A stretch of DNA of 45,069 bases from a phage. This document shows positions 14,256-39,835 of the stretch, piece by piece (position 1 is the stretch's first letter; each line of letters starts with the position of its first letter). A program made the position numbers and the translations under genes. The notes beneath the pieces were generated by a model. It had not been told where the DNA came from. It ran no database searches and was given only the letters and a program-made list of their open reading frames with translations. Location of the stretch: the sequence record PZ334583.1. The stretch is one strand, 5' to 3'.

Positions 14256-14271
14256 GTCTCACATGTGAGAC
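14256..14271. repeat. 16-bp perfect palindrome GTCTCACATGTGAGAC, copy 1, abutting promoter 14274
   Basis: exact sequence read; six copies in the genome. Confidence 0.9.
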
Positions 14272-14273
14272 TT

Positions 14274-14296
14274 ATTTACCGGACACTATAGGATAG
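14274..14296 (+). promoter_or_regulatory. Phage RNAP promoter (origin-associated; ATAGGATAG downstream variant)
   Basis: atttaccggacactataggatag. Confidence 0.7.
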
Positions 14297-14299
14297 CCG

Positions 14300-14430
14300 T
14301 CGGAGACGGGAAAGAAAGGGAAGATAAAGGATATAAAGGAAGTAATAGGTATTAAAGGTTATATAGGTTATCTAGGAATACCTATTACCTTCTTCCTTCC
14401 TCTTATTACTACTTAGAGGAAGGGCAGATC
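14300..14430. other. AT-rich, strand-asymmetric imperfect inverted repeat; candidate primary replication origin core
   Basis: purine-rich arm ggaaagaaagggaagataaaggatataaaggaagtaataggta..., pyrimidine-rich arm ...tacctattaccttcttccttcctcttatt; flanked by two palindrome-plus-promoter units; same position as the T7 primary origin. Confidence 0.4.
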
Positions 14431-14436
14431 TATGTT

Positions 14437-14452
14437 GTCTCACATGTGAGAC
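14437..14452. repeat. Palindrome GTCTCACATGTGAGAC, copy 2
   Basis: exact sequence read. Confidence 0.9.
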
Positions 14453-14457
14453 TTCGT

Positions 14458-14480
14458 ATTTACCGGACAGTATAGATAAG
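14458..14480 (+). promoter_or_regulatory. Degenerate phage promoter (ACAGTATAGATAAG)
   Basis: atttaccggacagtatagataag; C to G change in the core, may be weak or inactive. Confidence 0.4.
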
Positions 14481-14505
14481 ACTAATTTACTTTGGAGATT
14501 TAACC

Positions 14506-14634
14506 ATGCGTAACTTTGAGAAGATGACCCGTAAAGCTAACCGTTTTGACATGGAAGAAGGGCAGAAGAAAGGCAAGAAGCTGAATAAACCTGTCCGTGA
14601 CCGTGCATCTAAACGCGCTGCGTGGGAGTTCTAA
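14506..14634 (+). CDS. Small basic ORF (42 aa)
   Basis: ATG 14506 with GGAG 8 nt upstream; MRNFEKMTRKANRFDMEEGQKKGKKLNKPVRDRASKRAAWEF. Confidence 0.4.
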   Translation: MRNFEKMTRKANRFDMEEGQKKGKKLNKPVRDRASKRAAWEF

Positions 14635-14637
14635 GTT

Positions 14638-16626
14638 ATGGCTATTATTCAGAATGTACCGTGTCCTGCCTGTCAAAAGAATGGACATGATATTACTGGC
14701 AACCATCTTATGATATTTGAGGATGGCGCTGGTTACTGTAACCGTGGTCACTTCCATGATAACGGTAAACCTTATTACCACAAGCCGGAAGGTGGCATCG
14801 AGATAACCGAGTTACCTATTACTGGCAATATCAAATATACACCTTCTCAATTCAAAGAAATGGAGAAGGAAGGGAAGATAAGCGACCCTAAATTACGTGC
14901 CATCGCACTAGGTGGTATGCGTATGAAAGACCGTTGGGAGGTCATGAATGAGCAAGAAAGGGCAGACCAAGAAGCAGAGTGGAAGCTTGATGTTGAATGG
15001 TTCCTCACGCTTAAGCGTAAGAACCTTGTTTCCCGACACATTCGCGGCGACATTTGCGCATTGTATGATGTACGTGTCGGACACGATGAAGAGGGTAGAG
15101 TCTCGCGGCATTACTATCCACGCTTCGAGAAAGGTGAGCTAGTAGGAGCTAAGTGTCGCACATTACCTAAAGACTTTAAGTTTGGTCATTTAGGTAAACT
15201 CTTTGGTATGCAAGATCTTTTCGGGATGAATACTTTGTCTCACGTGTTAGACAAGGGAAGACGAAAGGATTGCTTGCTTATTGTGGGTGGGGAACTGGAT
15301 GCGCTAGCAGCGCAGCAGATGCTCCTTGATTCTGCCAAAGGTACTAAGTGGGAAGGACAACCATATCATGTGTGGTCTGTCAACAAGGGCGAGTCTTGCC
15401 TTGAAGAGATAGTGCAGAACCGTGAGCATATCGCCCAATTCAAGAAGATTATATGGGGTTTTGATGGAGATGAGGTAGGGCAGAAGCAGAATCAGCAAGC
15501 GGCTCGCCTGTTTCCTGGCAAATCCTATATCCTTGAATACCCCTCTGGTTGCAAAGATGCTAACAAGGCATTGATGGCTGGCAAGGCTAGAGAGTTTGTA
15601 GATGCATGGTTTAATGCCAAGTCATCTGATGAAGTCTTTGGTAGCCAGATTAAATCTATCGCATCTCAAAGGGATAAGCTCAAGGCTGCACGTCCAGAGC
15701 AAGGACTATCATGGCCTTGGCCTAAGCTGAACAAGGTAACGCTAGGTATTCGTAAGAACCAACTTATCATTGTAGGCGCAGGCTCTGGTGTAGGTAAGAC
15801 TGAGTTCCTTCGTGAAGTAGTTAAGCACCTCATTGAAGAACACGGTGAATCTGTAGGCATCATTTCTACAGAAGACCCGATGGTCAAGGTGTCCCGTGCT
15901 TTTATCGGCAAGTGGATTGATAAGCGTATTGAGTTACCGCCAACCAACGACCCGAAAGAAGATGGATACCGTGAGGTGTTCGACTACACCGAGGAAGAAG
16001 CTAACGCCGCCATTGATTATGTAGCCGATACAGGGAAGCTGTTTGTAGCTGACCTAGAAGGTGACTACTCGATGGAGAAGGTAGAGCAGACCTGCCTTGA
16101 GTTTGAGGCTATGGGTATTTCCAATATCATCATTGATAACTTAACGGGGATTAAATTAGATGAGCGTGCTTTTGGTGGGAAGGTTGGTGCACTTGATGAA
16201 TGCGTCAAGCGGATTGGTACTATCAAAGACCGACACCCGGTTACTATATTCCTTGTATCACACCTTACACGTCCTCCGGCAAACCGGACCCAACACGAAG
16301 AAGGTGGCGAAGTTATCCTTTCTGACTTCCGAGGCTCAGGCGCTATCGGATTCTGGGCATCTTACGCCTTGGGGATTGAGCGTAATACAAGAGCTGAAAC
16401 GCTTGACGAAAGGACTACCACGTACATCTCATGTGTCAAAGACCGCGACCAAGGAATATTTTCCGGTACTCGTATAATGCTTAAAGGTGATATTGCTACT
16501 GGTCGCTTACGTGAACCAGAGCAAAGATCTCGACCGTTTGATACTGGTGCTCCAAAAGAACAAACTGTACCAGAAGAAGTGATTGATAAAGGAGGTTTTA
16601 TTGCTGACGAAGTTGAAGAGTTTTGA
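14638..16626 (+). CDS. DNA primase/helicase (T7 gp4-like) with acidic C-terminal tail ending in Phe
   Basis: N-terminal Cys4 zinc ribbon (CPACQ...CNRGH), Walker A GAGSGVGKTEF, C-terminus ...FIADEVEEF; RBS GGGAG. Confidence 0.95.
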   Translation: MAIIQNVPCPACQKNGHDITGNHLMIFEDGAGYCNRGHFHDNGKPYYHKPEGGIEITELPITGNIKYTPSQFKEMEKEGKISDPKLRAIALGGMRMKDRWEVMNEQERADQEAEWKLDVEWFLTLKRKNLVSRHIRGDICALYDVRVGHDEEGRVSRHYYPRFEKGELVGAKCRTLPKDFKFGHLGKLFGMQDLFGMNTLSHVLDKGRRKDCLLIVGGELDALAAQQMLLDSAKGTKWEGQPYHVWSVNKGESCLEEIVQNREHIAQFKKIIWGFDGDEVGQKQNQQAARLFPGKSYILEYPSGCKDANKALMAGKAREFVDAWFNAKSSDEVFGSQIKSIASQRDKLKAARPEQGLSWPWPKLNKVTLGIRKNQLIIVGAGSGVGKTEFLREVVKHLIEEHGESVGIISTEDPMVKVSRAFIGKWIDKRIELPPTNDPKEDGYREVFDYTEEEANAAIDYVADTGKLFVADLEGDYSMEKVEQTCLEFEAMGISNIIIDNLTGIKLDERAFGGKVGALDECVKRIGTIKDRHPVTIFLVSHLTRPPANRTQHEEGGEVILSDFRGSGAIGFWASYALGIERNTRAETLDERTTTYISCVKDRDQGIFSGTRIMLKGDIATGRLREPEQRSRPFDTGAPKEQTVPEEVIDKGGFIADEVEEF

Positions 16627-17089
16627 GGCAGCAGGCTATACCATCAAGGAAGATGGTACTATCCTTAACCCTAAAGGTGTAATACGCAAGCCCACGCCTT
16701 TAGGAAAGAAAGTAAAGTATTTATATGTAACTTGGAGACATCAAGGTCGAACAGTGACAGAACTTGTACACCGACTGGTTGCTTGTAAGTACATACCCAA
16801 CCCACAGGGTTTACCAGAAGTTCATCATAAAGACTTTAATCCTCTTAATTGTCATAAGGATAATCTTGAATGGACAGATGGGAAAACCAATTGTGAGTAT
16901 AGCTATTCACGAGTAGAGACTGCACTTGCACGAAAGGCTACTTTGCTGTCACCTGATGGAATTAAACATGATGTGTTTAATGTTCGTAAGTTCTGCCGTA
17001 AACATAGCCTCAATCCACCTAGCATATTTGAAGTGCTCAGTGGTAAGCGTAAATCACACAAAGGTTGGGCTATTTACCGGACACTATAG
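16601..17089 (+). CDS. HNH homing-type endonuclease, paralog 1
   Basis: motifs VHHKDFNPLNCHKDNLEW (HNH), paralogous to 44626..45069; strong RBS AAGGAGG 16589..16595; start codon uncertain (TTG 16601 or 16613; ORF-track frame begins at 16583); 3' end contains promoter 17072. Confidence 0.75.
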   Translation: MLTKLKSFEAAGYTIKEDGTILNPKGVIRKPTPLGKKVKYLYVTWRHQGRTVTELVHRLVACKYIPNPQGLPEVHHKDFNPLNCHKDNLEWTDGKTNCEYSYSRVETALARKATLLSPDGIKHDVFNVRKFCRKHSLNPPSIFEVLSGKRKSHKGWAIYRTL

Positions 17090-17094
17090 AAGAG
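17072..17094 (+). promoter_or_regulatory. Phage RNAP promoter embedded in the 3' end of the HNH gene
   Basis: atttaccggacactatagaagag. Confidence 0.8.
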
Positions 17095-17145
17095 ACTAAC
17101 TTCGATGAAGAAAGTGAGTTCTGATTAGTGTATTTATCAGGGCTT

Positions 17146-17161
17146 GTCTCACATGTGAGAC
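17146..17161. repeat. Palindrome GTCTCACATGTGAGAC, copy 3 (extended stem cttgtctcacatgtgagacagg)
   Basis: exact sequence read; 30-bp context nearly identical to the copy at 39815. Confidence 0.9.
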
Positions 17162-17200
17162 AGGCTCTTATTAAGTACATTAAATAACTGGAGATTGATT

Positions 17201-17884
17201 ATGTATAAATTAGTATTGAATGTAGGTGATTATGTTCGTAACATCAATGAAGCCTCACGTCGTTATCGTTGCCGTGGTGTAGTGGATCGTGTAAGTGAGA
17301 ACATGTATCATGTAGAATATGAGGATGGTATTAAGGCTTCTTACCACAAGAAAACAGCACATAAATATCTTGAAAAGGTTGTAGAGATAAACAATCAATG
17401 TAAGTGCATACATGATGAGCTTTGCGATAAGTGTGCTCGCCAGATGCATAAGATGCTATTATACCCTTTTCGCTATTGTGCTGGCCCTCAAACACTAGCA
17501 GAGTACATGGCAGAAAAGAAAACCACACTCAAGAAAGAGCGTCGCAATGTAATCACTGGTAAGACTCAAAGTGAGATGATTAAGCAATGTGGCACTGCAC
17601 TAGGTGTTACGCAGTTTAACACTCGTGCTCTTGGTAAATCCACAGGACAAGCTATGGTAAAGATCGGCGAAGCCATGATGCATCCAAATGTACCTGTACG
17701 AATCAGGGATGTTGACCATGCAATCACAGAACACGGTACGCAACGACGTGTAATTAATAAGCATTTTGCCGACACTATAGAAGGTATTATTCGTAAGCAA
17801 GGGTTGAAAGGTCTTCATATCTTGAATGATGAAGAGTTACTGTACCTCCCTATTGTTACTGAAGAAACCTACGTGAATATCTAA
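17201..17884 (+). CDS. Hypothetical protein (227 aa), Cys-containing N-terminal region
   Basis: ATG 17201 with RBS GGAG; contains internal promoter-like sequence at 17762. Confidence 0.7.
   Translation: MYKLVLNVGDYVRNINEASRRYRCRGVVDRVSENMYHVEYEDGIKASYHKKTAHKYLEKVVEINNQCKCIHDELCDKCARQMHKMLLYPFRYCAGPQTLAEYMAEKKTTLKKERRNVITGKTQSEMIKQCGTALGVTQFNTRALGKSTGQAMVKIGEAMMHPNVPVRIRDVDHAITEHGTQRRVINKHFADTIEGIIRKQGLKGLHILNDEELLYLPIVTEETYVNI
17762..17784 (+). promoter_or_regulatory. Intragenic variant phage promoter-like sequence
   Basis: attttgccgacactatagaaggt; core GACACTATAGAAG intact, upstream specificity region diverged. Confidence 0.4.
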
Positions 17885-17894
17885 GGAGTTAATC

Positions 17895-18113
17895 ATGACT
17901 AAAGTATTAATTTATATGCGTGGACCTCATAAATGCTATGCAGTTGTAGCACCAAATGGTGTTAAGCCCTATAGTACTTCAAAAGGATTGGCATTAATAG
18001 GTGCTAGTAGTAGTGCAAGTTTCCAAATGGAACTTTTTGGTCATTGGAATGAAAGGCAATTCCGTGAGGATTTTAAAGTCATTGGCAGCTTCATGGTGAA
18101 ACATGCAGAATAA
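17895..18113 (+). CDS. Hypothetical protein (72 aa)
   Basis: RBS AAGGAG; ORF track. Confidence 0.55.
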   Translation: MTKVLIYMRGPHKCYAVVAPNGVKPYSTSKGLALIGASSSASFQMELFGHWNERQFREDFKVIGSFMVKHAE

Positions 18114-18126
18114 ACATAGTCTTAAA

Positions 18127-18279
18127 ATGTTCGATGGTCATGAAGACCTGCAAGCCAAGATTACTAACCAAGCCTTCCTGTTCGCACAGTTAACTATGGC
18201 TGAGGCCAAGAAGAATAGTCTCACTCGTGAACAGGTTATCAAGGAAAGTGAAGTGAAACGTAAGATTCGCAGTCGATAA
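18127..18279 (+). CDS. Small ORF (50 aa; or 58 aa from ATG 18103)
   Basis: MFDGHEDLQAKITNQAFLFAQLTMAEAKKNSLTREQVIKESEVKRKIRSR; followed by the terminator hairpin at 18286. Confidence 0.3.
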   Translation: MFDGHEDLQAKITNQAFLFAQLTMAEAKKNSLTREQVIKESEVKRKIRSR

Positions 18280-18285
18280 GTCAAG

Positions 18286-18314
18286 GGTTGTCTCACGTGT
18301 GAGACAGCCTTTTA
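18286..18314 (+). terminator. Terminator built on palindrome copy 4 (variant centre CACGTGTG)
   Basis: ggttgtctcacgtgtgagacagcc followed by ttttat; palindrome core 18290..18305. Confidence 0.6.
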
Positions 18315-18336
18315 TCATGTTGATTGGAGGTGCATT

Positions 18337-18444
18337 ATGCCACGTGATTATGATTCTGATTGGGACTACTATGACTCAATGAATCCAAAACCAGAACGTT
18401 CAGATGATTACTACGAAACAGAGGCAATGTATGAAAACTATTAA
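18337..18444 (+). CDS. Small acidic ORF (35 aa)
   Basis: ATG 18337 with RBS GGAGG; MPRDYDSDWDYYDSMNPKPERSDDYYETEAMYENY. Confidence 0.35.
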   Translation: MPRDYDSDWDYYDSMNPKPERSDDYYETEAMYENY

Positions 18445-18649
18445 AGTCAGTAAGGTTTGCTCTTGCGGTAAAGGTTATCGCAGTCGTATTGATGGTAAGT
18501 GTGGACATTGTAGGTCTAAGAAAGAGGCTGCTTTGTTTGACAAGTACCACAATGAATTAGCCTATAACTACCCACATCTAACACCTAATTCTTTATTAGG
18601 GCTTGGTTATAGGGCTAAATACTTTGGAGCAATCTATGAAATCAATTGA
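18431..18649 (+). CDS. Small Cys-rich (zinc-ribbon-like) protein (72 aa)
   Basis: ATG 18431; CSCGKGYRSRIDGKCGHC; overlaps the DNAP start by 14 nt. Confidence 0.45.
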   Translation: MKTIKVSKVCSCGKGYRSRIDGKCGHCRSKKEAALFDKYHNELAYNYPHLTPNSLLGLGYRAKYFGAIYEIN

Positions 18650-21182
18650 TTGGAAGAAGGAGGCAGAAGGTCGTATCCTCGTGATGGATGCGGAAGCTAA
18701 AGGACTCCTTGACGCTATCCGATATGGACACCGTGAAGATGTGCATATCATTTGCTGCATGGATTTGCTTACTACCGAGGAGTTTCTCTTCTTTGACCCG
18801 TATGAGATGCGTGACCCTGAAGCAAGAGAACGCCTGAAGGAATGGGAAGGTCATCAAGATGGAACCTTGGTTGACGGTGTTAACTTCCTGAAGCATTGTG
18901 AAGCTATTGTGTCACAGAACTTCCTAGGGTATGACGGACTTCTCTTTGAGAAAGCATTCCCTGATATTTGGAAAGGCTTTAACTATACCGAGAAGCGCGG
19001 TAAGGGCAGACTTCGTGCTGACCTGTGTCCGGTGCGAGTCATGGATACGCTGGTGATGAGTCGCCTGTTAAACCCCGATAGACGCCTTCCTCCGCAAGCA
19101 TATGCCAAAGGTATGGGTAACGTCGCCCCTCACTCAATTGAGGCGCACGGCATCCGTATAGGTCGCTATAAACCGGAGAACGAGGACTGGTCTAAACTAA
19201 CTGACCACATGGTTCACCGTGTACGTGAGGACGTGGCGATTGGTCGTGACCTATTCCTCTGGCTATTTAACGGAGAATGGACGGAGCACAAACGCCGTGG
19301 CGTGAATAAACGCACTGGCCTAGGTATTGAGACAGCCTTCCACATGGAGTCCATTGTGGCGCTGGAGATGAGCCGTCAGGCCGAGCGCGGGTTCCGTCTG
19401 GACATCGACAAGGCTTTGGCCCGATGCGAAGAATTGGACGCTAAGATTGATGAGACAGTCGCAGCGTTCCGCCCTCACATGCCTATGCGTATCAAGTCTA
19501 AACCTTTTAAACCGGAAGAAAAGAATGAAGTATGCCAACGCGCAAATGAGTATGGAGCTAGCAACAATATACCTACTGTCCTTGACCCCTCACACTTTCT
19601 TCATGCCGAGAGACGAGGAGATCGCAAGACAGTATGGAGTGTCACTACTAAGTCTGGTGATTGGTCGGCTAGTGTCAAGAAAGATTTTCCTCACCTTAGA
19701 GGAAACCGTAATGACACGCCAAGCATCAAGTGGATTGGCGCTTACTCGCCTGTTACTTTCGAAGAGATCCCCTTGGGTAACAGGGATACAGTTAAGCAAG
19801 TGCTCTATGAGTATGGATGGAAAGGTGTTGAATTTAACGATACCGAGCAAGCTCATCTCGATGAGCACGGAGTGTTACCAAAACCTTGGAGTGGTAAGAT
19901 AAATGAAAAGTCCCTCACTTTATGGCAAGAAAGAGCCGCACGTGAAGGTAAAACAGTCCCTGATTGGTGCTTGGGTATCGCTGCATGGTACATACTCGTA
20001 TCCCGTCGTGGTCAGATACTCAACCGTGGTGACGTTGAAGCCTTCAACGAGAAGGGAACGTGGCCCTCGCAGGCTGGTGTACGAAAGTGTCGCGGCCTTG
20101 TACCTGTAGCATTCAACAAGGAGCTAGGAATCAATGCGCAGCAATACTACGAGAGGTACGGATGTTGGCCTACGTCTGACAAAGATGACGGAGAGTGGCG
20201 TGTTCCAGCTGTTGCTATTAGCATTGGCACTTCTACGTTCCGTATGCGTCATCGTAACGTGGTTAATATTCCTGCCCGTGGCTTGTATCCTTTACGTGAT
20301 TTATTCATAGCAGGGAAAGGCAAGCTAATCCTTGGTTGTGACGGTGCAGGTCTTGAACTGCGTGTCCTGTCTCACTTCATGAATGACCCTGAGTACCAAG
20401 AGATTGTACTGCACGGTGATATTCATACGCATAACCAGATGAAGGCTGGTCTTCCTAAGCGTGATATGGCGAAGACGTTTATATACGCCTTCCTCTATGG
20501 CTCTGGTATAGCCAACCTTGCAGCAGTATGTGGTGTTACTGAGGAAGAAATGAAGGAAGTTGTGGCAAGATTCGAGATTGAACTGCCGTCTCTTGCACGT
20601 CTTCGTGAGAATGTTATCGCACAAGGTAACAAGTTTGGCTACCTGCAAGCACCTGATGGGCATTGGGGTCGCATCCGCATGTCTGGTGGTGAACTTAAAG
20701 AGCACACGATGCTTAACGTATTACTCCAGATGACTGGCTCTTTGTGTATGAAATATGCATTAGTCAAGGCATTTGCAGTAATGCGCAAGGAAGGTGTAGC
20801 CTTGGATGCTATGGGAAATCCTTGTGGTGTGGCTAACGTGCATGATGAAATCCAGATGGAAGTTCCTGAAGAGGAGGTCTTGTATCTTAACTACGACCTA
20901 CCTTTCACCTTAGATGGGTTCGAAACAGAGAAGGCTGCCGTGAAGGCAGTGTTCGATGCAGAGGAGAAACGTGTTCATGTGGATTCTGAAGGACGTATGT
21001 GGTCTGCTGCAAACCTCGTCAGTGTTGATGCTGATGCTGGTGTATTGCATTGCCAGCGCCGTTATCACCGTGCAGGTCATATCATTGCCGACGCCATGAC
21101 TTGGGCAGGGCAGTATCTGAAGATGCGTTGCCCGATGGCAGGCGAGTATAAGATTGGCGCAAGCTGGAAGGAAACACACTGA
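18636..21182 (+). CDS. DNA polymerase, family A (T7 gp5-like) with 3'-5' exonuclease domain
   Basis: 848 aa from ATG 18636 (RBS GGAG); exo motif ILVMDAEAKGL; polymerase motifs incl. RDMAKTFIYAFLYGSG and HDEIQ. Confidence 0.95.
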   Translation: MKSIDWKKEAEGRILVMDAEAKGLLDAIRYGHREDVHIICCMDLLTTEEFLFFDPYEMRDPEARERLKEWEGHQDGTLVDGVNFLKHCEAIVSQNFLGYDGLLFEKAFPDIWKGFNYTEKRGKGRLRADLCPVRVMDTLVMSRLLNPDRRLPPQAYAKGMGNVAPHSIEAHGIRIGRYKPENEDWSKLTDHMVHRVREDVAIGRDLFLWLFNGEWTEHKRRGVNKRTGLGIETAFHMESIVALEMSRQAERGFRLDIDKALARCEELDAKIDETVAAFRPHMPMRIKSKPFKPEEKNEVCQRANEYGASNNIPTVLDPSHFLHAERRGDRKTVWSVTTKSGDWSASVKKDFPHLRGNRNDTPSIKWIGAYSPVTFEEIPLGNRDTVKQVLYEYGWKGVEFNDTEQAHLDEHGVLPKPWSGKINEKSLTLWQERAAREGKTVPDWCLGIAAWYILVSRRGQILNRGDVEAFNEKGTWPSQAGVRKCRGLVPVAFNKELGINAQQYYERYGCWPTSDKDDGEWRVPAVAISIGTSTFRMRHRNVVNIPARGLYPLRDLFIAGKGKLILGCDGAGLELRVLSHFMNDPEYQEIVLHGDIHTHNQMKAGLPKRDMAKTFIYAFLYGSGIANLAAVCGVTEEEMKEVVARFEIELPSLARLRENVIAQGNKFGYLQAPDGHWGRIRMSGGELKEHTMLNVLLQMTGSLCMKYALVKAFAVMRKEGVALDAMGNPCGVANVHDEIQMEVPEEEVLYLNYDLPFTLDGFETEKAAVKAVFDAEEKRVHVDSEGRMWSAANLVSVDADAGVLHCQRRYHRAGHIIADAMTWAGQYLKMRCPMAGEYKIGASWKETH

Positions 21183-21298
21183 TGGATAGGCTTGACATTG
21201 TTTGCCTATTCTTCACTTTCTTTCTTACACTCCTTATGCTTGCTTGTTATGGGAGTATGAGACTAGATATACCTGATGAAGAAGAGGGTTACGACTAA
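21182..21298 (+). CDS. Tiny hydrophobic protein (38 aa)
   Basis: ATG overlapping the DNAP stop (ATGA); MDRLDIVCLFFTFFLTLLMLACYGSMRLDIPDEEEGYD. Confidence 0.35.
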   Translation: MDRLDIVCLFFTFFLTLLMLACYGSMRLDIPDEEEGYD

Positions 21299-21396: not shown

Positions 21397-21406
21397 GTTA
21401 TACTCA

Positions 21407-21430
21407 AGGTCACTTACGAGTGGCCTTTAT
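21407..21430 (+). terminator. Weak terminator-like hairpin
   Basis: aggtcac-ttacga-gtggcct then ttat. Confidence 0.35.
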
Positions 21431-21464
21431 GGATAACTTATCCCTACTTATTTTGTCTAACATG

Positions 21465-21487
21465 ATTTACTGGACACTATAGAAGGA
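21465..21487 (+). promoter_or_regulatory. Phage RNAP promoter followed by an AT-rich TAGGT-repeat leader
   Basis: atttactggacactatagaagga; downstream ctaggtttataaggtagtataggtaattaag. Confidence 0.85.
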
Positions 21488-22091: not shown

Positions 22092-22898
22092 ATGGCACGT
22101 GGTGATTTTGATTTTGGTGCTCAGGTTACTAAGGCTGAAGGTAAAGTATTTAAGAACCCTGAAGTTGGTGATCATGAAGCAGTAATCTCTGGCATCATTC
22201 ATGTTGGTTCCTTCCAAGATATTTTTAAGAAAGGTAATACCACTGAGGTTAAGAAGCCAGCAAACTTTGTTCTTGTTAAGATTATCCTGATGGGTGACGA
22301 CGACAAGAATGAAGATGATTCTCGCATGGAACAGTGGATGGCTGTGCCTCTGAAGTCTGGTGACAAGGCAACCTTGACTAAGTTCCTGAATGCAGTTGAC
22401 CCTAAAGAGCTGCTTGGTGGTTTCGATGACTTCATCGGTGAATGCCTGACTGCAACTATGGTTGGCTCTGGCGACAAGAATGATGATGGTACTTTCAAGT
22501 ATGTTAACTGGAAAGGCTTTGGCGGTATGCCTGATAAGTTGAAGAAGCTTGTACTGGCTCAGGTAGAAGAGGAAGGTCTGTCTATGACAGGTCATATCAC
22601 CTTCGACAAGCTGACCAAAGAAATCCTTGATGACATCCCAGCTAACTTGGTGCGTCAATACTTCCTTAATGAAACACCTCGTGGTAAGAACCTGTCTGTT
22701 GCTGGTTCTCACGTAGAAGCAATCATTAAAGCTGCTCGTGAAGAAGACCCAGAGTGGAAGAAAGCCAAGAAGAAAGATGACGAGGATGCTACTCCAGCTA
22801 ATCGTAAATCTATGGATACTGGTGAGTCTGTTCCACAGGAAGTACCTGAAGCAGAAGATACTCCTGCACCGGAGATGGATGAGGACGCGGAATATTAA
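22092..22898 (+). CDS. Putative single-stranded DNA-binding protein (gp2.5-like) with acidic C-terminal tail
   Basis: 268 aa; Lys-rich body, acidic C-terminus PEMDEDAEY; codon usage of a highly expressed gene; function inferred from composition and position only. Confidence 0.4.
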   Translation: MARGDFDFGAQVTKAEGKVFKNPEVGDHEAVISGIIHVGSFQDIFKKGNTTEVKKPANFVLVKIILMGDDDKNEDDSRMEQWMAVPLKSGDKATLTKFLNAVDPKELLGGFDDFIGECLTATMVGSGDKNDDGTFKYVNWKGFGGMPDKLKKLVLAQVEEEGLSMTGHITFDKLTKEILDDIPANLVRQYFLNETPRGKNLSVAGSHVEAIIKAAREEDPEWKKAKKKDDEDATPANRKSMDTGESVPQEVPEAEDTPAPEMDEDAEY

Positions 22899-23127: not shown

Positions 23128-23143
23128 GTCTCACATGTGAGAC
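23128..23143. repeat. Palindrome GTCTCACATGTGAGAC, copy 5, 15 nt upstream of promoter 23159
   Basis: exact sequence read. Confidence 0.9.
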
Positions 23144-23158
23144 AAATCGGTGTCCGGT

Positions 23159-23181
23159 ATTTACTGGACACTATAGAAGAG
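23159..23181 (+). promoter_or_regulatory. Phage RNAP promoter
   Basis: atttactggacactatagaagag, perfect consensus. Confidence 0.85.
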
Positions 23182-23230: not shown

Positions 23231-23608
23231 ATGTTCAAGATTGAAACTATCGTAAACCGTGTTGTTAAAGGTGCTGCTCTGGTATCCGTTGAGTCTTTCA
23301 TTATCGTCGATGAAGCTGATCAACTGGTAGCTGGTACTAAGGCTTACGATACCCGTGAAGAAGCTCAGGCTAAGATTGACAGCATGGGTAACTTCGCTGC
23401 TGGTCTGGAGTTCGCTCGCGCTTGCTTCCCTGAGCAGGCTGACAAAGCTCAGATTGGTAAGGCCAATATCGTAGCTGAGTATCTGGATTGGATTGCTGCT
23501 GGTAAGCCGGTGAAAGAAGTTAAGGCTGCTGAAGAAGCTGAAGCTCCGGCAGTAGAAGAAGTAGCTGCACCGGTAGATGCTCCGGTAAGCGAAGAAGAAG
23601 AGTTTTAA
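23231..23608 (+). CDS. Highly expressed small protein (125 aa) with acidic C-terminal tail ending ...SEEEEF
   Basis: RBS AAGGAG; Ala-rich; the C-terminal acidic tail with terminal Phe mirrors that of the primase-helicase. Confidence 0.75.
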   Translation: MFKIETIVNRVVKGAALVSVESFIIVDEADQLVAGTKAYDTREEAQAKIDSMGNFAAGLEFARACFPEQADKAQIGKANIVAEYLDWIAAGKPVKEVKAAEEAEAPAVEEVAAPVDAPVSEEEEF

Positions 23609-31625: not shown

Positions 31626-31631
31626 TTCAGT

Positions 31632-32913: not shown

Positions 32914-32920
32914 TACCTAT

Positions 32921-32957
32921 GCCCTATCTACCTTGCGTAGGTAGGGTTATTTTTTGT
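32921..32957 (+). terminator. Terminator after the capsid gene (T-phi analogue)
   Basis: gccctatctacc-ttgcg-taggtagggtt imperfect hairpin followed by attttttg. Confidence 0.65.
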
Positions 32958-32968
32958 TAGGAGGATTC

Positions 32969-33706
32969 ATGCCTGTAATTAGACAAACCAGTAAAGTAGG
33001 ACACATGATGGAAGATGTGGCCTTCCAGATTATTGATAGTAAACTTGAAGCGGTCAACCTGTGTATGCGAGCTATTGGTCGTGAGGGTGTGGATTCTCTC
33101 GACTCAGGGGACTTGGACGCAGAAGATGCAAGCAAGATGATCGACATCGTATCCCAGCGGTTCCAGTACAACAAAGGAGGTGGCTGGTGGTTCAATCGTG
33201 AACCAAACTGGCAGATTGCACCTGATACCAATGGTGAAGTCAATCTGCCTAACAACTGCCTAGCAGTATTGCAGTGTTATGCTTTGGGTGAGAAGAAAGT
33301 ACCCATGACTATGCGTGCAGGTAAGCTTTACTCCACATGGAGTCACACCTTTGATATGCGCAAGCATGTTAATGCTAATGGCATGATTCGTCTTACCTTA
33401 CTCACCTTACTACCTTACGAGCATCTACCTACAAGTGTAATGCAGGCTATTGCCTATCAAGCTGCTGTAGAGTTTATTGTGTCTAAGGATGCAGATCAGA
33501 CTAAGCTAGCCACTGCGCAGCAGATAGCCACTCAGCTTCTTATGGATGTACAATCTGAGCAAATGTCACAGAAGCGATTAAACATGCTGGTACATAACCC
33601 CACTCAGCGTCAGTTTGGTATCATGGCTGGTGGCTCTCAGAATGTACCTGCTTACTCTCATTCACCTTATGAAAGTTGGGCGCTCCGTCCGTGGGAGGAT
33701 CGTTAA
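32969..33706 (+). CDS. Tail tubular protein A (gp11-like)
   Basis: ATG 32969 with RBS AGGAGG; position and size. Confidence 0.85.
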   Translation: MPVIRQTSKVGHMMEDVAFQIIDSKLEAVNLCMRAIGREGVDSLDSGDLDAEDASKMIDIVSQRFQYNKGGGWWFNREPNWQIAPDTNGEVNLPNNCLAVLQCYALGEKKVPMTMRAGKLYSTWSHTFDMRKHVNANGMIRLTLLTLLPYEHLPTSVMQAIAYQAAVEFIVSKDADQTKLATAQQIATQLLMDVQSEQMSQKRLNMLVHNPTQRQFGIMAGGSQNVPAYSHSPYESWALRPWEDR

Positions 33707-36108
33707 TGGAAGTACAAGGTTCATTAGGTAGACAAATCCAAGGGATTAGCCAGCAGCCGCCAGCGGTACGCTTGGATGGTCAGTGCACAGCTATGGTTAA
33801 TATGATACCTGATGTAGTGAATGGTACCCAATCACGCATGGGTACAACTCATATTGCGAAGATACTTGATGCGGGGACTGATGACATGGCTACTCATCAT
33901 TATCGCAGAGGTGATGGTGATGAAGAGTATTTCTTCACGTTGAAGAAAGGACAAGTTCCTGAGATATTTGATAAGTATGGGCGCAAATGTAATGTGACTT
34001 CACAAGATGCACCTATGACCTACCTCTCTGAGGTTGTTAATCCAAGGGAAGATGTGCAATTCATGACGATAGCTGATGTTACTTTCATGCTTAATCGTAG
34101 GAAAGTAGTTAAAGCTAGTAGCAGGAAGTCACCTAAAGTTGGAAACAAAGCCATTGTGTTTTGTGCGTATGGTCAATATGGTACATCTTATTCCATTGTA
34201 ATTAATGGGGTCAACGCTGCTAGTTTTAAAACACCGGATGGTGGAAGTGCAGACCATGTTGAACAAATTCGAACTGAACGTATCACTTCTGAATTGTACT
34301 CTAAGTTGCAGCAATGGAGCGGTGTGAGTGACTATGAAATACAAAGAGACGGTACTAGTATATTTATCGAGAGACGGGATGGTGCTAGCTTTACAATAAC
34401 AACCACCGATGGTGCAAAAGGTAAGGACTTAGTGGCTATCAAGAATAAAGTTAGCTCTACTGACCTACTCCCTTCTCGTGCACCTGCTGGTTATAAAGTA
34501 CAAGTGTGGCCTACTGGCAGCAAACCTGAGTCTCGTTACTGGCTGCAAGCTGAGCCTAAAGAGGGAAACCTTGTGTCTTGGAAAGAAACAATAGCTGCTG
34601 ATGTATTACTTGGGTTTGATAAAGGCACAATGCCTTACATTATTGAACGTACAGATATCATCAACGGCATAGCTCAATTCAAGATAAGACAAGGTGATTG
34701 GGAAGATCGTAAAGTAGGGGATGACTTGACTAACCCTATGCCCTCTTTTATTGATGAGGAAGTACCCCAGACAATAGGTGGAATGTTCATGGTGCAGAAC
34801 CGCCTATGTTTTACAGCAGGTGAAGCGGTTATTGCTTCTCGTACATCATACTTCTTCGATTTCTTTCGTTATACGGTTATCTCTGCATTGGCAACTGACC
34901 CATTTGATATTTTCTCAGATGCTAGTGAAGTCTACCAGCTAAAACATGCAGTGACCTTAGATGGCGCTACCGTGTTGTTCTCTGATAAGTCACAATTCAT
35001 ACTGCCAGGAGATAAGCCTTTAGAGAAGTCAAATGCATTGCTTAAGCCTGTTACAACATTTGAAGTGAACAATAAAGTGAAGCCAGTAGTAACTGGTGAA
35101 TCGGTAATGTTTGCCACTAATGATGGTTCTTACTCTGGTGTACGAGAGTTCTATACAGACTCTTATAGTGACACTAAGAAGGCACAAGCAATCACAAGTC
35201 ATGTGAATAAACTCATCGAAGGTAACATTACCAACATGGCAGCAAGCACCAATGTCAACAGGTTACTTGTCACTACCGATAAGTATCGTAACATAATCTA
35301 CTGCTACGATTGGTTATGGCAAGGAACAGACCGTGTACAATCAGCATGGCATGTATGGAAGTGGCCTATAGGTACAAAGGTGCGAGGTATGTTTTATTCT
35401 GGTGAATTACTTTACCTGCTCCTTGAGCGAGGGGATGGCGTATATCTGGAGAGGATGGACATGGGTGATGCACTAACCTACGGTTTGAATGACCGCATCA
35501 GAATGGATAGGCAAGCAGAGTTAGTCTTCAAGTATTTTAAAGCAGAAGATGAATGGGCGTCTGAACCTCTTCCTTGGACTCCTACTAACCCAGAACTTTT
35601 AGATTGCATCTTAATCGAGGGTTGGGATTCATATATTGGTGGCTCTTTCTTATTCAAGTACAACCCTAGTGACAATACTTTGTCTACAACCTTTGATATG
35701 TATGATGACAGTCATGTAAAAGCGAAGGTTATTGTTGGTCAGATTTACCCTCAAGAGTTTGAACCTACACCTGTGGTTATCAGAGACAATCAAGACCGTG
35801 TATCCTATATTGATGTACCAGTTGTAGGATTGGTTCACCTTAATCTTGACATGTACCCCGATTTCTCCGTAGAAGTTAAGAATGTGAAGAGTGGTAAAGT
35901 ACGTAGAGTATTAGCGTCAAACCGTATAGGTGGTGCTCTCAATAATACAGTAGGCTATGTTGAACCGAGAGAAGGTGTCTTCAGATTTCCACTGAGAGCT
36001 AAGAGCACGGATGTTGTTTATCGTATTATTGTAGAGTCACCCCACACATTCCAGCTTCGTGATATTGAGTGGGAAGGGAGCTACAATCCAACCAAAAGGA
36101 GGGTCTAA
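33706..36108 (+). CDS. Tail tubular protein B (gp12-like)
   Basis: 800 aa from ATG 33706 (TAATG overlap, RBS GGGAGGA); N-terminus ...IQGISQQPPAVRLDGQ matches the conserved gp12 GISQQP motif. Confidence 0.9.
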   Translation: MEVQGSLGRQIQGISQQPPAVRLDGQCTAMVNMIPDVVNGTQSRMGTTHIAKILDAGTDDMATHHYRRGDGDEEYFFTLKKGQVPEIFDKYGRKCNVTSQDAPMTYLSEVVNPREDVQFMTIADVTFMLNRRKVVKASSRKSPKVGNKAIVFCAYGQYGTSYSIVINGVNAASFKTPDGGSADHVEQIRTERITSELYSKLQQWSGVSDYEIQRDGTSIFIERRDGASFTITTTDGAKGKDLVAIKNKVSSTDLLPSRAPAGYKVQVWPTGSKPESRYWLQAEPKEGNLVSWKETIAADVLLGFDKGTMPYIIERTDIINGIAQFKIRQGDWEDRKVGDDLTNPMPSFIDEEVPQTIGGMFMVQNRLCFTAGEAVIASRTSYFFDFFRYTVISALATDPFDIFSDASEVYQLKHAVTLDGATVLFSDKSQFILPGDKPLEKSNALLKPVTTFEVNNKVKPVVTGESVMFATNDGSYSGVREFYTDSYSDTKKAQAITSHVNKLIEGNITNMAASTNVNRLLVTTDKYRNIIYCYDWLWQGTDRVQSAWHVWKWPIGTKVRGMFYSGELLYLLLERGDGVYLERMDMGDALTYGLNDRIRMDRQAELVFKYFKAEDEWASEPLPWTPTNPELLDCILIEGWDSYIGGSFLFKYNPSDNTLSTTFDMYDDSHVKAKVIVGQIYPQEFEPTPVVIRDNQDRVSYIDVPVVGLVHLNLDMYPDFSVEVKNVKSGKVRRVLASNRIGGALNNTVGYVEPREGVFRFPLRAKSTDVVYRIIVESPHTFQLRDIEWEGSYNPTKRRV

Positions 36109-36854
36109 TGGCTATAGGTTCAGCCGTTATGGCTGGTATGTCTTCTATTGGTAGTATGTTTGCAGGTAGCGGTGCAGCAGCCGCTGCTGGTGGTACTGCC
36201 GCAGCAGCAGGAGGGACAGCCGCCGCAGGTGGCGGAGGTTTGCTTGGCTCCCTTGGTAGTTTCTTAGGAGGTTCTTCTGCTGGCTTCTCTAATGCAGGAC
36301 TGCTTAGTGCAGGTATGCAAGGTCTTGGTCTTCTAGGCAATCTTTTTGGTGGAAGCGATGAAGCCAAAGCTATGAAGAAAGCTCAGGAGGAGCAATGGCG
36401 GCAGCAGTTAATTGCTACACAAGAAGCATATAAGACAGTGGCAGATGCAGAACGCTCTGCTGCTAAACAGTATCATGCGGATGCAATAAGCAATCAGGCT
36501 TCACTACTGCAGCAGAGAGCACAGGTTGCATTGCTTGCTGGTGCTACTGGTACTGGTGGTAACTCTGTGTCTTCTATGCTGAATGACTTAGCAGCAGAAG
36601 GCGGAAGGAACCAGAGTACAATTATCGATAACTATGAGAATCAGAAGATTAACTTCACCAACCAGCTTAAGTCCATCCAACGTGGTGGTCAGATGCAGAT
36701 GCGTGAGTTTAAGAAACCTTCTGCCGTGAGCACCTTGGTGCAAGGTATACCGAGTCTGGCATCTGCCTATGTAACAGGTAGTAAGTCCGGCATGGCTTTA
36801 GGTAAAGCTTTAACTGATTCTCGTACATATTCATCTGGAACAAGAGGTATTTAA
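36108..36854 (+). CDS. Internal virion protein A (gp14-like), Gly/Ala-rich N-terminus
   Basis: ATG 36108 (TAATG overlap, RBS AAAGGAGGG). Confidence 0.75.
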   Translation: MAIGSAVMAGMSSIGSMFAGSGAAAAAGGTAAAAGGTAAAGGGGLLGSLGSFLGGSSAGFSNAGLLSAGMQGLGLLGNLFGGSDEAKAMKKAQEEQWRQQLIATQEAYKTVADAERSAAKQYHADAISNQASLLQQRAQVALLAGATGTGGNSVSSMLNDLAAEGGRNQSTIIDNYENQKINFTNQLKSIQRGGQMQMREFKKPSAVSTLVQGIPSLASAYVTGSKSGMALGKALTDSRTYSSGTRGI

Positions 36855-39802
36855 TGGCAATTGAGCGACAAGCAGTACAAGGTCTGCCACAAGTGCAGGC
36901 CACTTCTCCTAATGTCATGACCTTTGCACCTCAGCGAGTTGGAGGTGTGGAGGCTGGCGTAGCTTCTACCTCCGGTAGTCGATTTATCGAAGACCTTATT
37001 CGAGCAGCCAGTAGTGTAGCTGATGTAACCACTGGTATCCTTAATCAAAAGATTGAGGAAGATAAGGTTGTTCAAATGGAACGGGCATATAACGGATTAA
37101 TGCCTTCTGAGGATGCAACTCGTGGTGGCGCTCGTGCTAACATGCTTGTCAAAGCTCAACTGCTAGCTAATGATGAAGCAGCACGAATGAAAGACATGGC
37201 TACTCGTTTCCAAGGAACGGATGACGAGTGGACACAACTTATGGTTGACTCTCGTAATGAGATGCAGAATAAGCTGTTCCAGCAATACCCTGAGTTGCAA
37301 GGTGACAAAGATACTATGCGTATGGTCACTAATGTCTTCCAAGAACAGCAGCCTCAGATTTGGGCGACACGAACCCAGCATAAACTTGACCGTGAACAAG
37401 CAGACCGTGAGGATACCTTTGACGGGCGAGTGGCTTCTACTTGGGATTCTAATATTGACCCTGAAGCATCTGGCTATGCTTTACAGGAACGAATCCGCGA
37501 AGGTCTTACTCAAGGATTACTACCTGAACAGATGCACAAGAAGTTAGTCCAGCGAGCAATTTCACTTGCACAAGGCGGTGATGTTAGCATGGCTGAAGCC
37601 CTGAAGTATGTGAAGGACGATAAGGGTGTTTCTGTTTATGCTAAGAATCCACAGCTTATCACAGCCATCACTAGTGGTAATGCAGTTTGGGCTAGGAATA
37701 ATGTAGCTGATGTAACTCGTATGTCTTTCGAAGTTAAAGAATCCTACCTTGCAGGTGATTTAACTGATGAAGAATTGTTGGAACGAGCACAGCACATTAA
37801 TAATCTGACAGGTAACTCTGTCTTCTCTAATCCAGAGCTAGAGGCACTGATGCGCCAACGGGCTAAGCAGAATGCAGAGCTAGGTGCAATGCAGGATATG
37901 CGACGTGAGCTTTACTCCGACCGCCTGACTGGCTTCCAAGGTAAGACTGATAAAGAGAAGAAGGCTTACATTGATGTTATCAAACAGGATAGCCAACTTT
38001 ATGCAGACCAGCAAATCAAACAACGTGGCTTGGACCCTTACAGTCAAGAGGCTGAAGCTATTCGTGGTGCAGTGGAAGTGCAGCGCCTGCAATTCATGAA
38101 CTCCAAAGGCTTAGTGGATGATACCTTTGAGTCTCGTATCAAAGCCATGGAATCTATGCTATCGCCTGAGCACTTTGCCAAGGGCGAACCACAGGAGTTG
38201 ATGACTATTCGCCAGTTGTGGGAACAGTTGCCAGAAGAGAGCCGAGGTGTCTTTGGTGACACGGTGAATGGCTACATGGATAACTACAACACTGCACTAC
38301 AAATGGGAGAGACACCTTTGCAGGCTGCAAGGTTTGCGCGTGAAGCACAGCAGAAATTCTCTCGTACTGAGAAGGAAACCAAGAAGTTCAACTCAGCTAT
38401 TGGAGATGCACTGGATGAGGTATCTGGTGCTGGCTGGTTTGATGGTAAAACCGAAGTGTCAGACTTAGGTAAAGCTATTGCGGAAGAAGAGTTACGAGCT
38501 AAGGCCAATATGTTGTGGTCTAGTGGTATGCGTAACATGGATTCTATCAAGAAGGCTTTAATTACTTGGGGCAATAAACGCTACACTCAAACAGAGGATG
38601 CAAAGACTTCCGGTGGCTATTTCATTAAAGGTGATTACACTTCTGCATCTGATATGCTTATGTCAGTTGGGAAAGGCGTAAACCCTACCGATGTACCTCT
38701 GGCGCTTGGTAGGTATGTAGAAACACAGATGCCAGAATTGAAGAAGGAGCTTCAAGAGTGGGAAACTAAAGATGATATATACATTGATTACAATGAACAG
38801 AAAGGTACTTTCGTGATTCGTGCTGGTGCAGCAGGTCGCCCTCTTTCTGGAGTAATCCCTGTAACCTCTTTAGATACCACTTCACTACTAGATTCTGCCT
38901 ATCAGAAGAAAGTAGAGGAACGAGATAAAGGCGAGTATGTTCACCCTTATCGTACAGATATTGGTGCACAAGAGCCTATGCCAGCTAAACCCACTGCCAA
39001 AGATATTGGTAAATTTGGACTAGCTAACTTCCTCATGTCTTCTGCTTTTGCTTCTGGTGAGAATCTGCCTTCTAACTTCGAGATTAACTATCGAGGTAAT
39101 ATGCAACAATTCTATGACAAGCTAGCTATGGATGAGAATAAAGATAAAGTTGGCTTTAATAAGGCAACTGGAACCTTTACTCCATATAAAGATGCTCACG
39201 GTGAGTCTATCGGTTACGGTCATTTCTTAACGGAAGAAGAGAAGAGAAACGGGTATATTAAGATTGGTGATGAACTAGTTCCCTATCGAGGGTCTATGTC
39301 TCAGCTTACAGAGAGCAAGGCTCGCGCTCTTATGGAGCAAGATGCCAAGAAGCATGTGCCTCCTACTCGTGACTGGAAGATTCCGTTTGACCAGATGCAT
39401 CCTGCACAGCAACGTGGTTTGATGGATTTAACCTACAATTTAGGTAAAGGTGGAATCCAGAACTCACCGCGTGCTCTTGCTGCATTCAAAGCTGGTAAGC
39501 TTACGGAAGGCTTTATCGAAATGCTGGGCACTGCATCAAGTGAAGGTAAACGTATTCCGGGCCTACTGAAGCGACGCGCTGAGGCATACAATATGGCAGC
39601 TGCTGGTGGTGTACCTAAGATCACAGAAGTGGAGACGAGGGAAGATGGCTCTATGTGGGTTAAGTTTGGTGGACCTATGCCAGCAGGCTCTGTTTCTGCG
39701 TGGACGCATAAACGTATTGGAGCCGATGGCTGGTATCAGGTTTATGAGGCTGCACCTACCAAGTTAGCTAAAGACTCTAAGGTAGGTAAAGTTAAATTGT
39801 AG
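36854..39802 (+). CDS. Internal virion protein B (gp15-like) with C-terminal lysozyme-like peptidoglycan hydrolase domain
   Basis: 982 aa; C-terminal region ...GESIGYGHFLTEEE...QQRGLMDLTYNLGKGG...GKRIPGLLKRRAEAYNMA resembles phage lysozyme-type muramidases. Confidence 0.8.
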   Translation: MAIERQAVQGLPQVQATSPNVMTFAPQRVGGVEAGVASTSGSRFIEDLIRAASSVADVTTGILNQKIEEDKVVQMERAYNGLMPSEDATRGGARANMLVKAQLLANDEAARMKDMATRFQGTDDEWTQLMVDSRNEMQNKLFQQYPELQGDKDTMRMVTNVFQEQQPQIWATRTQHKLDREQADREDTFDGRVASTWDSNIDPEASGYALQERIREGLTQGLLPEQMHKKLVQRAISLAQGGDVSMAEALKYVKDDKGVSVYAKNPQLITAITSGNAVWARNNVADVTRMSFEVKESYLAGDLTDEELLERAQHINNLTGNSVFSNPELEALMRQRAKQNAELGAMQDMRRELYSDRLTGFQGKTDKEKKAYIDVIKQDSQLYADQQIKQRGLDPYSQEAEAIRGAVEVQRLQFMNSKGLVDDTFESRIKAMESMLSPEHFAKGEPQELMTIRQLWEQLPEESRGVFGDTVNGYMDNYNTALQMGETPLQAARFAREAQQKFSRTEKETKKFNSAIGDALDEVSGAGWFDGKTEVSDLGKAIAEEELRAKANMLWSSGMRNMDSIKKALITWGNKRYTQTEDAKTSGGYFIKGDYTSASDMLMSVGKGVNPTDVPLALGRYVETQMPELKKELQEWETKDDIYIDYNEQKGTFVIRAGAAGRPLSGVIPVTSLDTTSLLDSAYQKKVEERDKGEYVHPYRTDIGAQEPMPAKPTAKDIGKFGLANFLMSSAFASGENLPSNFEINYRGNMQQFYDKLAMDENKDKVGFNKATGTFTPYKDAHGESIGYGHFLTEEEKRNGYIKIGDELVPYRGSMSQLTESKARALMEQDAKKHVPPTRDWKIPFDQMHPAQQRGLMDLTYNLGKGGIQNSPRALAAFKAGKLTEGFIEMLGTASSEGKRIPGLLKRRAEAYNMAAAGGVPKITEVETREDGSMWVKFGGPMPAGSVSAWTHKRIGADGWYQVYEAAPTKLAKDSKVGKVKL

Positions 39803-39819
39803 TACCTAACTCAAGGCTT

Positions 39820-39835
39820 GTCTCACATGTGAGAC
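39820..39835. repeat. Palindrome GTCTCACATGTGAGAC, copy 6, between internal virion protein genes
   Basis: exact sequence read; extended context ggcttgtctcacatgtgagacaggtctttat. Confidence 0.9.

Follow-up and report, generated by a model that had tools for sequence, protein, structure and literature searches.

In the ParB-parS system, and for the KorB protein of plasmid RK2, short palindromic sites are read by helix-turn-helix (HTH) proteins, which act at a distance by means of a CTPase domain. For ParB and Noc, it has been demonstrated experimentally that residues of the protein helix and bases of the site change together. The development of T7-supergroup phages, on the other side, is thought to rest almost wholly on RNA polymerase (RNAP) specificity, promoter strength, genome entry, and RNase III processing. 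Here, we analyzed a stretch of 45,069 nucleotides (sequence record PZ334583.1, hereafter the window, meaning this whole stretch), a circularly permuted K1E/K1-5-type Vectrevirus genome (Molineuxvirinae, Autographiviridae) that is 93-97% identical to many K1E/K1-5-type phages and has every gene on the + strand. The element under study is a repeated 16-bp palindrome, GTCTCACATGTGAGAC, that we regard with moderate confidence, from sequence comparisons, as a parS/KorB-operator-like double-stranded DNA site for a putative dimer of the early protein gp6. The ground for assigning it to a gp6-type protein is that, in many lineages, a change in the site goes along with a change in the helix predicted to read the DNA.

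The palindrome family and its conserved positions

The window search found the exact 16-mer five times and a copy with one mismatch, GTCTCACGTGTGAGAC, at 18290; these are the six intergenic copies of the original prediction, at the positions where it had placed them (Table 1; copies are named by their first position). When up to 3 mismatches were allowed, 8 matches were found against 0.18 expected from shuffles, and none of 100 shuffles reached 8. The two additional relatives lie at 8750 (GTCTAACACGTTAGAC) and 15237 (GTCTCACGTGTTAGAC). The same eight sites are present in K1E and K1-5, and only the two central bases vary (AT, GT, or AC). Three copies immediately precede phage promoters, as had been claimed, so that 3 of the 12 promoters in the window carry an adjoining 16-mer. 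The identical context at 17141 and 39815 was also real, and it measured 24 contiguous bases (GGCTT, the 16-mer, and AGG) instead of the proposed 30 or so.

Table 1. Positions of the palindrome copies, of the gp6 gene, and of related features. Positions are those of the window unless a locus is named.
Feature	Position	Strand	Context
gp6, proposed reader, 294 aa, phrog_4571	10606..11490	+	early region, just upstream of the RNAP gene
Left-end copy, compensating changes in both arms	8750..8765	.	34 nt upstream of a sigma70-like promoter, TTGACA (8800) / TACTAT (8823)
16-mer, exact, stand-alone	14256..14271	.	preceded by the RNAP gene with its terminator; 2 nt ahead of phage promoter 14274-14291
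16-mer, exact, stand-alone	14437..14452	.	5 nt upstream of phage promoter 14458-14475
In-frame copy	15237..15252	.	within the primase/helicase coding sequence, codons TCT CAC GTG TTA GAC
16-mer, exact, hairpin tip	17146..17161	.	apical stem of RNase III-type hairpin 17125-17183; z -7.3
Copy with centre GT, hairpin tip	18290..18305	.	apical stem of RNase III-type hairpin 18266-18329; z -3.7
16-mer, exact, stand-alone	23128..23143	.	15 nt ahead of the promoter of gp18 (phage promoter 23159-23176)
16-mer, exact, hairpin tip	39820..39835	.	apical stem of RNase III-type hairpin 39799-39857; z -4.0
T7-type RNase III site without 16-mer, TCAAGGTCACTTACGAGTGGCCTTTATG	21404..21431	+	between the DNA polymerase gene and the promoter at 21465
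E. coli prophage cassette	L098:10713-10830; L188:2501-2671 (NZ_CP095271.1)		hairpin GAGGCTT-GTCTCACACGTGAGAC-AAGCTTC

The comparison was extended to a panel of nine motif-bearing genomes, including SP6, Klebsiella phages K1-ULIP33 and H01, Proteus phage PM85, Pectobacterium phage POP72, Erwinia phage Era103, E. coli phage ECBP5, and Vibrio phage phi-A318. Each of them carried 4-10 copies of GTC-nnnn-N2/3-nnnn-GAC at homologous places, where about one was expected from mononucleotide shuffles. The arms were uniform within a genome and differed between genera by compensating changes, being GTCTCAC in Vectrevirus, Era103, phi-A318, and several metagenomic lineages, GTCCAAC in K1-ULIP33, PM85, POP72, and H01, GTC(T/C)AAC...GTTGGAC in SP6, and GTCTAGT in ECBP5. 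The centre reads R(N)Y with a length particular to the genome, namely 3 nt in PM85 and phi-A318 and 2 nt in most genomes. The same 8-10 positions were conserved from Vectrevirus to Colwellvirinae. A site homologous to copy 14256 was found in SP6, K1-ULIP33, PM85, POP72, H01, and Era103 with lineage-specific arms, and the position of copy 15237 held each lineage's own arm type in SP6, K1-ULIP33, POP72, and H01. Moreover, every one of the nine panel genomes has kept the left-end copy, which in Era103 and PM85 adjoins a phage promoter. Homologous positions in other genera are, in short, occupied by systematically related palindromes and not by the unrelated hairpins that would have spoken against the original prediction. 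No repeated palindrome was detected in T7, KpV48, MR5, Ahp1, or Vibrio phage 1.204.O. The palindrome adjoins promoters of very different sequence in Era103, PM85, POP72, and one IMG/VR contig (L026), indicating that it is not a part of promoter specificity.

Some copies stand in other surroundings. In K1-5 (L040), the site before the DNA polymerase region (9570-9585) has a foreign arm type, GTCCAACGTGTTGGAC, and a different downstream sequence, the other K1-5 sites being of the GTCTCAC type; this foreign arm points to recombination with a GTCCAAC-type phage. Several metagenomic podophages (L002, L010, L013, L023, L027, and L029) carry the exact 16-mer between the stop codon of the major capsid gene and a strong intrinsic terminator, and in phi-A318, Era103, L007, and L023, copies directly adjoin a Shine-Dalgarno sequence (GTGAGAC-AAGGAG).

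Covariation of the sites with a predicted helix of gp6

The proteins found in all nine motif-bearing genomes and lacking in T7 included gp6, gp16, gp18, and a few small ones. gp6 was present in all the motif-bearing genomes examined and absent from the five motif-less phages named above. It contains an HTH-like segment, EFGIKKAQCYKLMSVARVF, with a helix at residues 61-74, KAQCYKLMSVARVF. In the first alignment, the residue following QCY (position 66) was K in the genomes with GTCTCAC arms (the window, Era103, and phi-A318), N in those with GTCCAAC (K1-ULIP33, POP72, H01, and PM85), H in SP6 with its GTC(T/C)AAC...GTTGGAC sites, and R in ECBP5 with GTCTAGT. A total of 39 further loci were then fetched through gp6. 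In these, the pair Q63 and K66 went with GTCTCAC in Vectrevirus, Era103-like, phi-A318-like, and Pseudomonas Alpheus-like phages and in the loci L007 and L073; the pair Q and N always went with GTCCAAC; and a new class, Y and R, went with GTCTACA.

Next, unseen helix variants were picked from the homologue list, and their contigs were fetched without knowledge of the motif. A gp6 with W and K at positions 63 and 66 came with TGTCTAGC-ACT-GCTAGACA, one with H and R with AGTAACAC-GC-GTGTTACT, and one with Q and R with GT(T/C)CCAC-RCY-GTGGGAC. A further Q, Y, K variant (residues 63, 65, and 66) had GTCTCAC, as predicted. The variant with S at position 65 between Q and K, from Vibrio phage 15E36.1, came with six copies of GTTTCAC-NNN-GTGAAAC, whose arm is the canonical parS half-site. 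Collectively, residues 63, 65, and 66 corresponded one-to-one with nine arm types: QYK with GTCTCAC (at least seven lineages), QYN or QFN with GTCCAAC, QYH with the SP6 mixture, WYR with GTCTAGT, WYK with GTCTAGC, YYR with GTCTACA, HYR with GTAACAC, QYR with GT(T/C)CCAC, and QSK with GTTTCAC.

As a control, we counted alignment columns that perfectly separate GTCTCAC from GTCCAAC genomes. There were none in RNAP, helicase, DNA polymerase, ligase, or capsid, and 11 over 18 core proteins, mostly conservative changes, with gp6 K66/N among them. The near absence of such columns suggests that the GTCCAAC genomes are not a clade excluding Vectrevirus, and hence that residue and site changed together more than once.

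An AlphaFold2 model of gp6, built from 63 diverse homologues, gave a confident helical N-domain at residues 1-122 (predicted local distance difference test 85-93), a disordered acidic linker at 126-191, a long helix at 194-232 that we read as a coiled coil, and a small C-domain at 239-293 that is J-like in the model. The model suggests the N-domain as a candidate HTH of the ParB/KorB fold. A Foldseek search with this model returned nothing significant, KorB-operator and VirB-DNA complexes being among the weak matches. No PDB entry matched gp6, gp10, or gp16 in sequence searches, and gp6 homologues are labelled DUF3102 in UniRef, with a weak match to the Pfam family of that name. The ParB/Srx CTPase N-domain was not found in gp6: in the model, the HTH is preceded only by one long helix of about 45 residues, and the sequence has no GxxRxxA-type box. 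Among the readers offered by the original prediction, a dimeric DNA-binding protein is the one that the evidence favors, with gp6 as the concrete candidate. Binding of gp6 to the sites, and what such binding does, we infer from these comparisons; each half, (T)GTCTCAC, would be read by one HTH of a gp6 dimer.

The other two larger proteins of this phyletic pattern, gp16 (22092-22898, 268 aa, ending ...EMDEDAEY) and gp18 (23231-23608, 125 aa, ending ...VSEEEEF), have acidic C-terminal tails with a terminal aromatic residue, resembling the tails of T7 gp2.5 and gp4. They are probably a single-stranded DNA-binding protein analogue and a replisome accessory protein.

DNA site, RNA hairpin, or another signal

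It is rather unlikely that all copies are RNA hairpins, that is, RNase III sites, mRNA-stabilising 3' hairpins, or weak phage-RNAP terminators, kept identical by descent, RNase III preference, or gene conversion. As RNA, the stand-alone copies (8750, 14256, 14437, 15237, and 23128) pair over 6 bp only, with hairpin energies of about -5 to -7 kcal/mol and z about -0.5 against shuffles, and are too short for RNase III. The stable G+C-rich hairpin and U run of intrinsic (class I) terminators were not seen in the core hairpins, which have -4.9 to -6.9 kcal/mol, and copy 23128 is followed by AAAUCGG; these values do not bear out the plain termination signal that had been among the proposals. When de-duplicated single-mismatch copies were read on the sense strand, 25 had wobble pairs and 48 did not (19 pairing-breaking transitions and 29 transversions), a ratio close to neutral substitution, which suggests that pairing as such is not preserved. 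Copies also lie at conserved places inside the RNAP, helicase, and ligase genes, where the encoded peptide varies (VSHVLD, VSNVLD, and VSRCET) and the palindrome is kept. Five genera have the primase/helicase copy, in the arm type proper to each, and the RNAP-gene copy is found in Era103, POP72, and phi-A318. A perfect palindrome would give TGA in the frame used, and the coding copies have GTTAGAC instead, the G-to-T change of copy 15237 avoiding this stop. In all genera, the first promoters are preceded by a copy. From their coding and left-end positions, those copies cannot be terminators, and together with the weak stand-alone folds and the lack of a G·U bias, these positions argue that the core is read as DNA and not as an RNA helix. 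The claim of sequence-specific recognition rather than a generic hairpin is thus strongly supported by the related palindromes across genera and the missing pairing signature.

The hairpin explanation draws its best evidence from copies 17146, 18290, and 39820, hereafter class A, which fold like T7 R sites (z scores in Table 1). Their flanks are complementary and bring the stem to a length of 13-14 bp; the G·U pairs among them hold in the sense RNA alone. In the fold, an asymmetric internal loop separates an upper from a lower stem; in the flank of 18290, a compensatory C-G to G-C change is seen relative to the other two. The flanks, ACTCAAGG...C(C/T)TTTATGAT, agree with the consensus of the T7 RNase III sites R0.3, R0.5, R1.1, R1.3, R4.7, and R18.5, which was taken directly from the T7 genome and can also be written ACTCAAGG...CCTTTATGAT; the flanks shared by the three copies are ACUCAAGG...CCUUUAUGAU, and those of 39820, ACTCAAGG...CTTTATGAT, match the consensus as well. 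Placement between cistrons is also as in T7, and T7 R sites are likewise similar among themselves. The 16-mer adds 7 bp at the tip, so that the upper stem has 13-14 bp against about 10 bp in T7, which itself has no repeated palindrome of this kind. The R-site scaffold was not found at the remaining 5 of the 8 copies. The site at 21404, by which this phage group shares the T7 processing-site design, is normal without a 16-mer, indicating that the palindrome is not needed for an RNase III structure. Each class-A element is a putative RNase III-type processing hairpin, judged by its sequence, with the 16-mer inserted at the tip. The proposed processing signal accordingly held for 3 of the 6 reported copies, where the 16-mer is an apical insert and not the T7-like part. 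Some 16-mer hairpins may have been annotated as terminators, as suggested by one report, in which seven SP6 RNAP terminators are counted, with the nearest start site 14 bp away (PMC11347151); since it cites the 2004 SP6/K1-5 genome papers for this number, some were probably noted as such there. A signal of structure only, on the other hand, would not keep identical arms, a genome-specific centre length, and covariation with gp6.

Recognition by another reader is a less probable explanation still, and we consider it decidedly unlikely. The phage RNAP (pausing or termination), the primase/helicase, or a small phage protein would then use the sites, and the gp6 correlation would be a phylogenetic coincidence. 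GTC...GAC is invariant, which places 5'-GTC on both strands, and GTC is the recognition triplet of T7 primase; the SP6 primase, however, is reported to recognise GCA. The sites are concentrated in the leftmost 40% of the genome, in the replication region and at the early-to-middle boundary, at positions corresponding to the origin-associated promoters of T7 (phiOL and phi1.1A/B). gp6 has only 2 perfectly correlated columns against about 0.4 expected, which is suggestive and not overwhelming. Against these points, no such column was seen in RNAP, helicase, or DNA polymerase, and the blind predictions from the gp6 helix succeeded. An RNAP-specified signal was rejected since the arms do not follow the promoter type: Era103 has the arms of K1-5 but other promoters, whereas SP6 has the promoter type of K1-5 but other arms. 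A host factor as the reader was also discarded, given that ECBP5 and K1-5 both infect E. coli and have different arms, and that the count in host genomes, which the original prediction had suggested, did not find the exact 16-mer in representative enterobacterial genomes. Very improbable is a mobile or homogenised mini-palindrome, such as a REP/MITE-like element, an HNH-borne sequence, or a product of gene conversion, with no dedicated reader. HNH genes do often adjoin copies, as with 16583-17089 before copy 17146, the end of Era103 g12, which overlaps a copy, and an HNH pseudogene beside an E. coli prophage copy; the foreign GTCCAAC-type site 5 of K1-5 implies that copies can be imported by recombination; and unrelated genomes have their own families of this 16-mer. 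Yet positions are conserved across genera and even subfamilies, in-frame coding positions included, gene conversion would not be efficient over as little as 16 bp, and neither variable copy number or position between close relatives nor a loss of positional homology between genera was observed. The suggested link to HNH endonucleases also found no support, because the motif is present irrespective of HNH content, and a phage would not keep eight targets of its own nuclease. Resemblances to a restriction site, a start-stop mini-open reading frame (AUGUGA), and LexA, CRP, MatP, and SlmA sites were set aside, as the geometry did not fit or was broken by variants.

Several observations weigh against a gp6 operator. 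The lineages that show covariation are related by phylogeny, so that independent co-changes are few, perhaps 6-8, and gp6 is without the CTPase domain of ParB and KorB. The PM85 genome combines 2-nt and 3-nt centres, which a rigid dimer would not easily accommodate, and the three class-A copies are embedded in functional-looking RNA structures. In addition, the imperfect copies of SP6 (six sites) and of the locus L187 (three sites) are all T·G mismatches on the sense strand; this is what the hairpin model predicts, and recognition as double-stranded DNA would need a mutation bias or tolerated half-sites to account for it.

Outside the panel, the exact 16-mer was found in 37 IMG/VR stretches, mostly of Vectrevirus and other gp6-bearing podophages, and in 75 stretches of 596 Gbp of representative bacterial genomes, none of them in E. 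coli or Salmonella. A search with a free centre found only AT, GT, or AC centres at gp6-type phage loci and scattered centres at unrelated ones. Repeat families of this 16-mer occur in a GC-rich prophage contig (L025:964-3019, with three copies, each at the tip of a long GC hairpin) and in Patescibacteria and FCPU426 metagenome-assembled genomes (loci L199-L264, which are JAHISE01 contigs, and L266). The prophage contig was considered as a sign of a universal reader and is now judged a coincidence, since only 65,536 perfect 16-bp palindromes are possible and other unrelated genomes have 16-mer families of their own.

Among complete E. coli genomes, 596 of 5,426 (11%) contain an unannotated cassette in a lambdoid prophage, located between terminase and lysis genes and beside an HNH pseudogene (Table 1). 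Its extended 16-mer hairpin is followed by a perfect Vectrevirus-type promoter, ATTTACTGGACACTATAGAAGG, a ribosome-binding site, and a small hydrophobic open reading frame, MFHSTSHQAVIMAASVCATDLFRFTLSLIHFYLTGSPLSF. The cassette might be a leftover, or it might act as a sensor or decoy, triggered by the RNAP of an infecting phage.

Other observations concern the surroundings of the window copies. A (TA)n run at 8035-8050, near the inferred genome end, lies upstream of copy 8750. The HNH gene 16583-17089 is inserted between the primase/helicase gene and a class-A hairpin, K1-5 lacking it there, and its last codons contain a full phage promoter (17072-17089). Within 23149-23171, the sequence GGTGTCCGG, which lies between copy 23128 and the gp18 promoter, is complementary to the promoter specificity region, CTGGACAC. 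Upstream complements with compensating sequence were also seen at promoters of POP72 (CCGCCC/GGGCGG), PM85 (GGTGGTCT/AGACCAC), and phi-A318 (AGGGC/GCCCT), which suggests a conserved hairpin that includes the promoter.

Possible role and comparison with known systems

If gp6 is the reader, the phage chromosome would be marked at about eight places: the left end, the primase/helicase gene, and the gp18 promoter with one site each, the tandem promoters after the RNAP gene with two, and hairpin tips with three. At these tips, the palindrome may have been accommodated in a compact genome with no damage to the RNA fold, or the hairpins may have grown around the sites. The site family and the gp6 recognition helix would have co-evolved across at least three Autographiviridae subfamilies. 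By analogy with KorB, we prefer for gp6 at its sites a role as a global landmark, roadblock, or regulator at the early-to-middle boundary; about as likely is the marking of replication start regions, or of chromosome organisation, or the recruitment of a partner through the J-like domain. A wider proposal is tentative and on the whole doubtful, namely, an undescribed chromosome-marking system in SP6/K1-5-like and in Vibrio, Pseudomonas, and Aeromonas podophages, in which gp6 on some 8-10 co-evolving sites would organise or time transcription and replication, or recruit host Hsp70, with the E. coli cassette as a sensor or decoy.

Should the assignment to gp6 be right, a co-evolving protein-operator network would add a missing regulatory or organisational layer to the SP6/K1-5 branch of the T7 supergroup and its marine relatives, and a conserved early gene (phrog_4571/DUF3102-like) would gain a function. 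gp6 binding would be specific for the cognate GTCTCACATGTGAGAC over GTCCAACATGTTGGAC and GTTTCACNNGTGAAAC, and the lineages would offer a natural series of matched HTH/operator specificities, testable by swaps of one to three residues. Phage therapy directed at K1 E. coli, Klebsiella, and Salmonella makes use of this group, and biotechnology of its RNAPs; placed beside SP6-type promoters, orthogonal pairs of operator and repressor could serve as parts. The literature searched did not contain the 16-mer, and neither the motif nor a ParB-like role of gp6 was found described there, the 2004 SP6/K1-5 genome papers being outside the reach of this search. It also yielded nothing relevant on palindromes or terminators of SP6-like phages, on DUF3102, or on ParB/parS in Autographiviridae. 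An Rfam scan of the window returned nothing relevant.

Among known elements, the PeSL cassettes of T4-type phages share with our sites a stem-loop directly upstream of a phage promoter that recurs in intergenic regions. PeSLs are reportedly variable in sequence, tied to plastic regions, and thought to promote recombination (said to be the view of Arbiol et al. in 2010), whereas the window motif is exact in sequence, has conserved positions, and stands at only a quarter of the promoters. Another likeness is found in ParB-parS (TGTTTCACGTGAAACA). The phage half-site, TGTCTCAC, is one base from the parS half-site, TGTTTCAC, and the Vibrio phage noted above has GTTTCAC itself. The coupled change of helix residues and site bases is also the pattern of the ParB/Noc specificity switch. 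In the phage sites, however, the half-sites stand 2-3 bp further apart, there is neither ParA nor a CTPase/spreading domain, and a lytic phage needs no segregation. KorB with the 12 OB operators of RK2 offers a parallel in layout, with a short perfect palindrome present about 10 times per replicon, some copies beside promoters, some far off, and some within genes. The phage system differs from it in that gp6 carries a coiled coil and a J-like domain in place of the ParB/Srx CTPase N-domain, that no KorA- or IncC-like partner was seen, that the sites have an R(N)Y centre of 2-3 bp, and that the replicon is a lytic T7-supergroup phage with its own single-subunit RNAP. Sequence comparison and the structural model together would point to a ParB/KorB-type HTH-operator system that dispenses with the CTPase domain, is joined to a predicted J-like domain, and operates in lytic phages.

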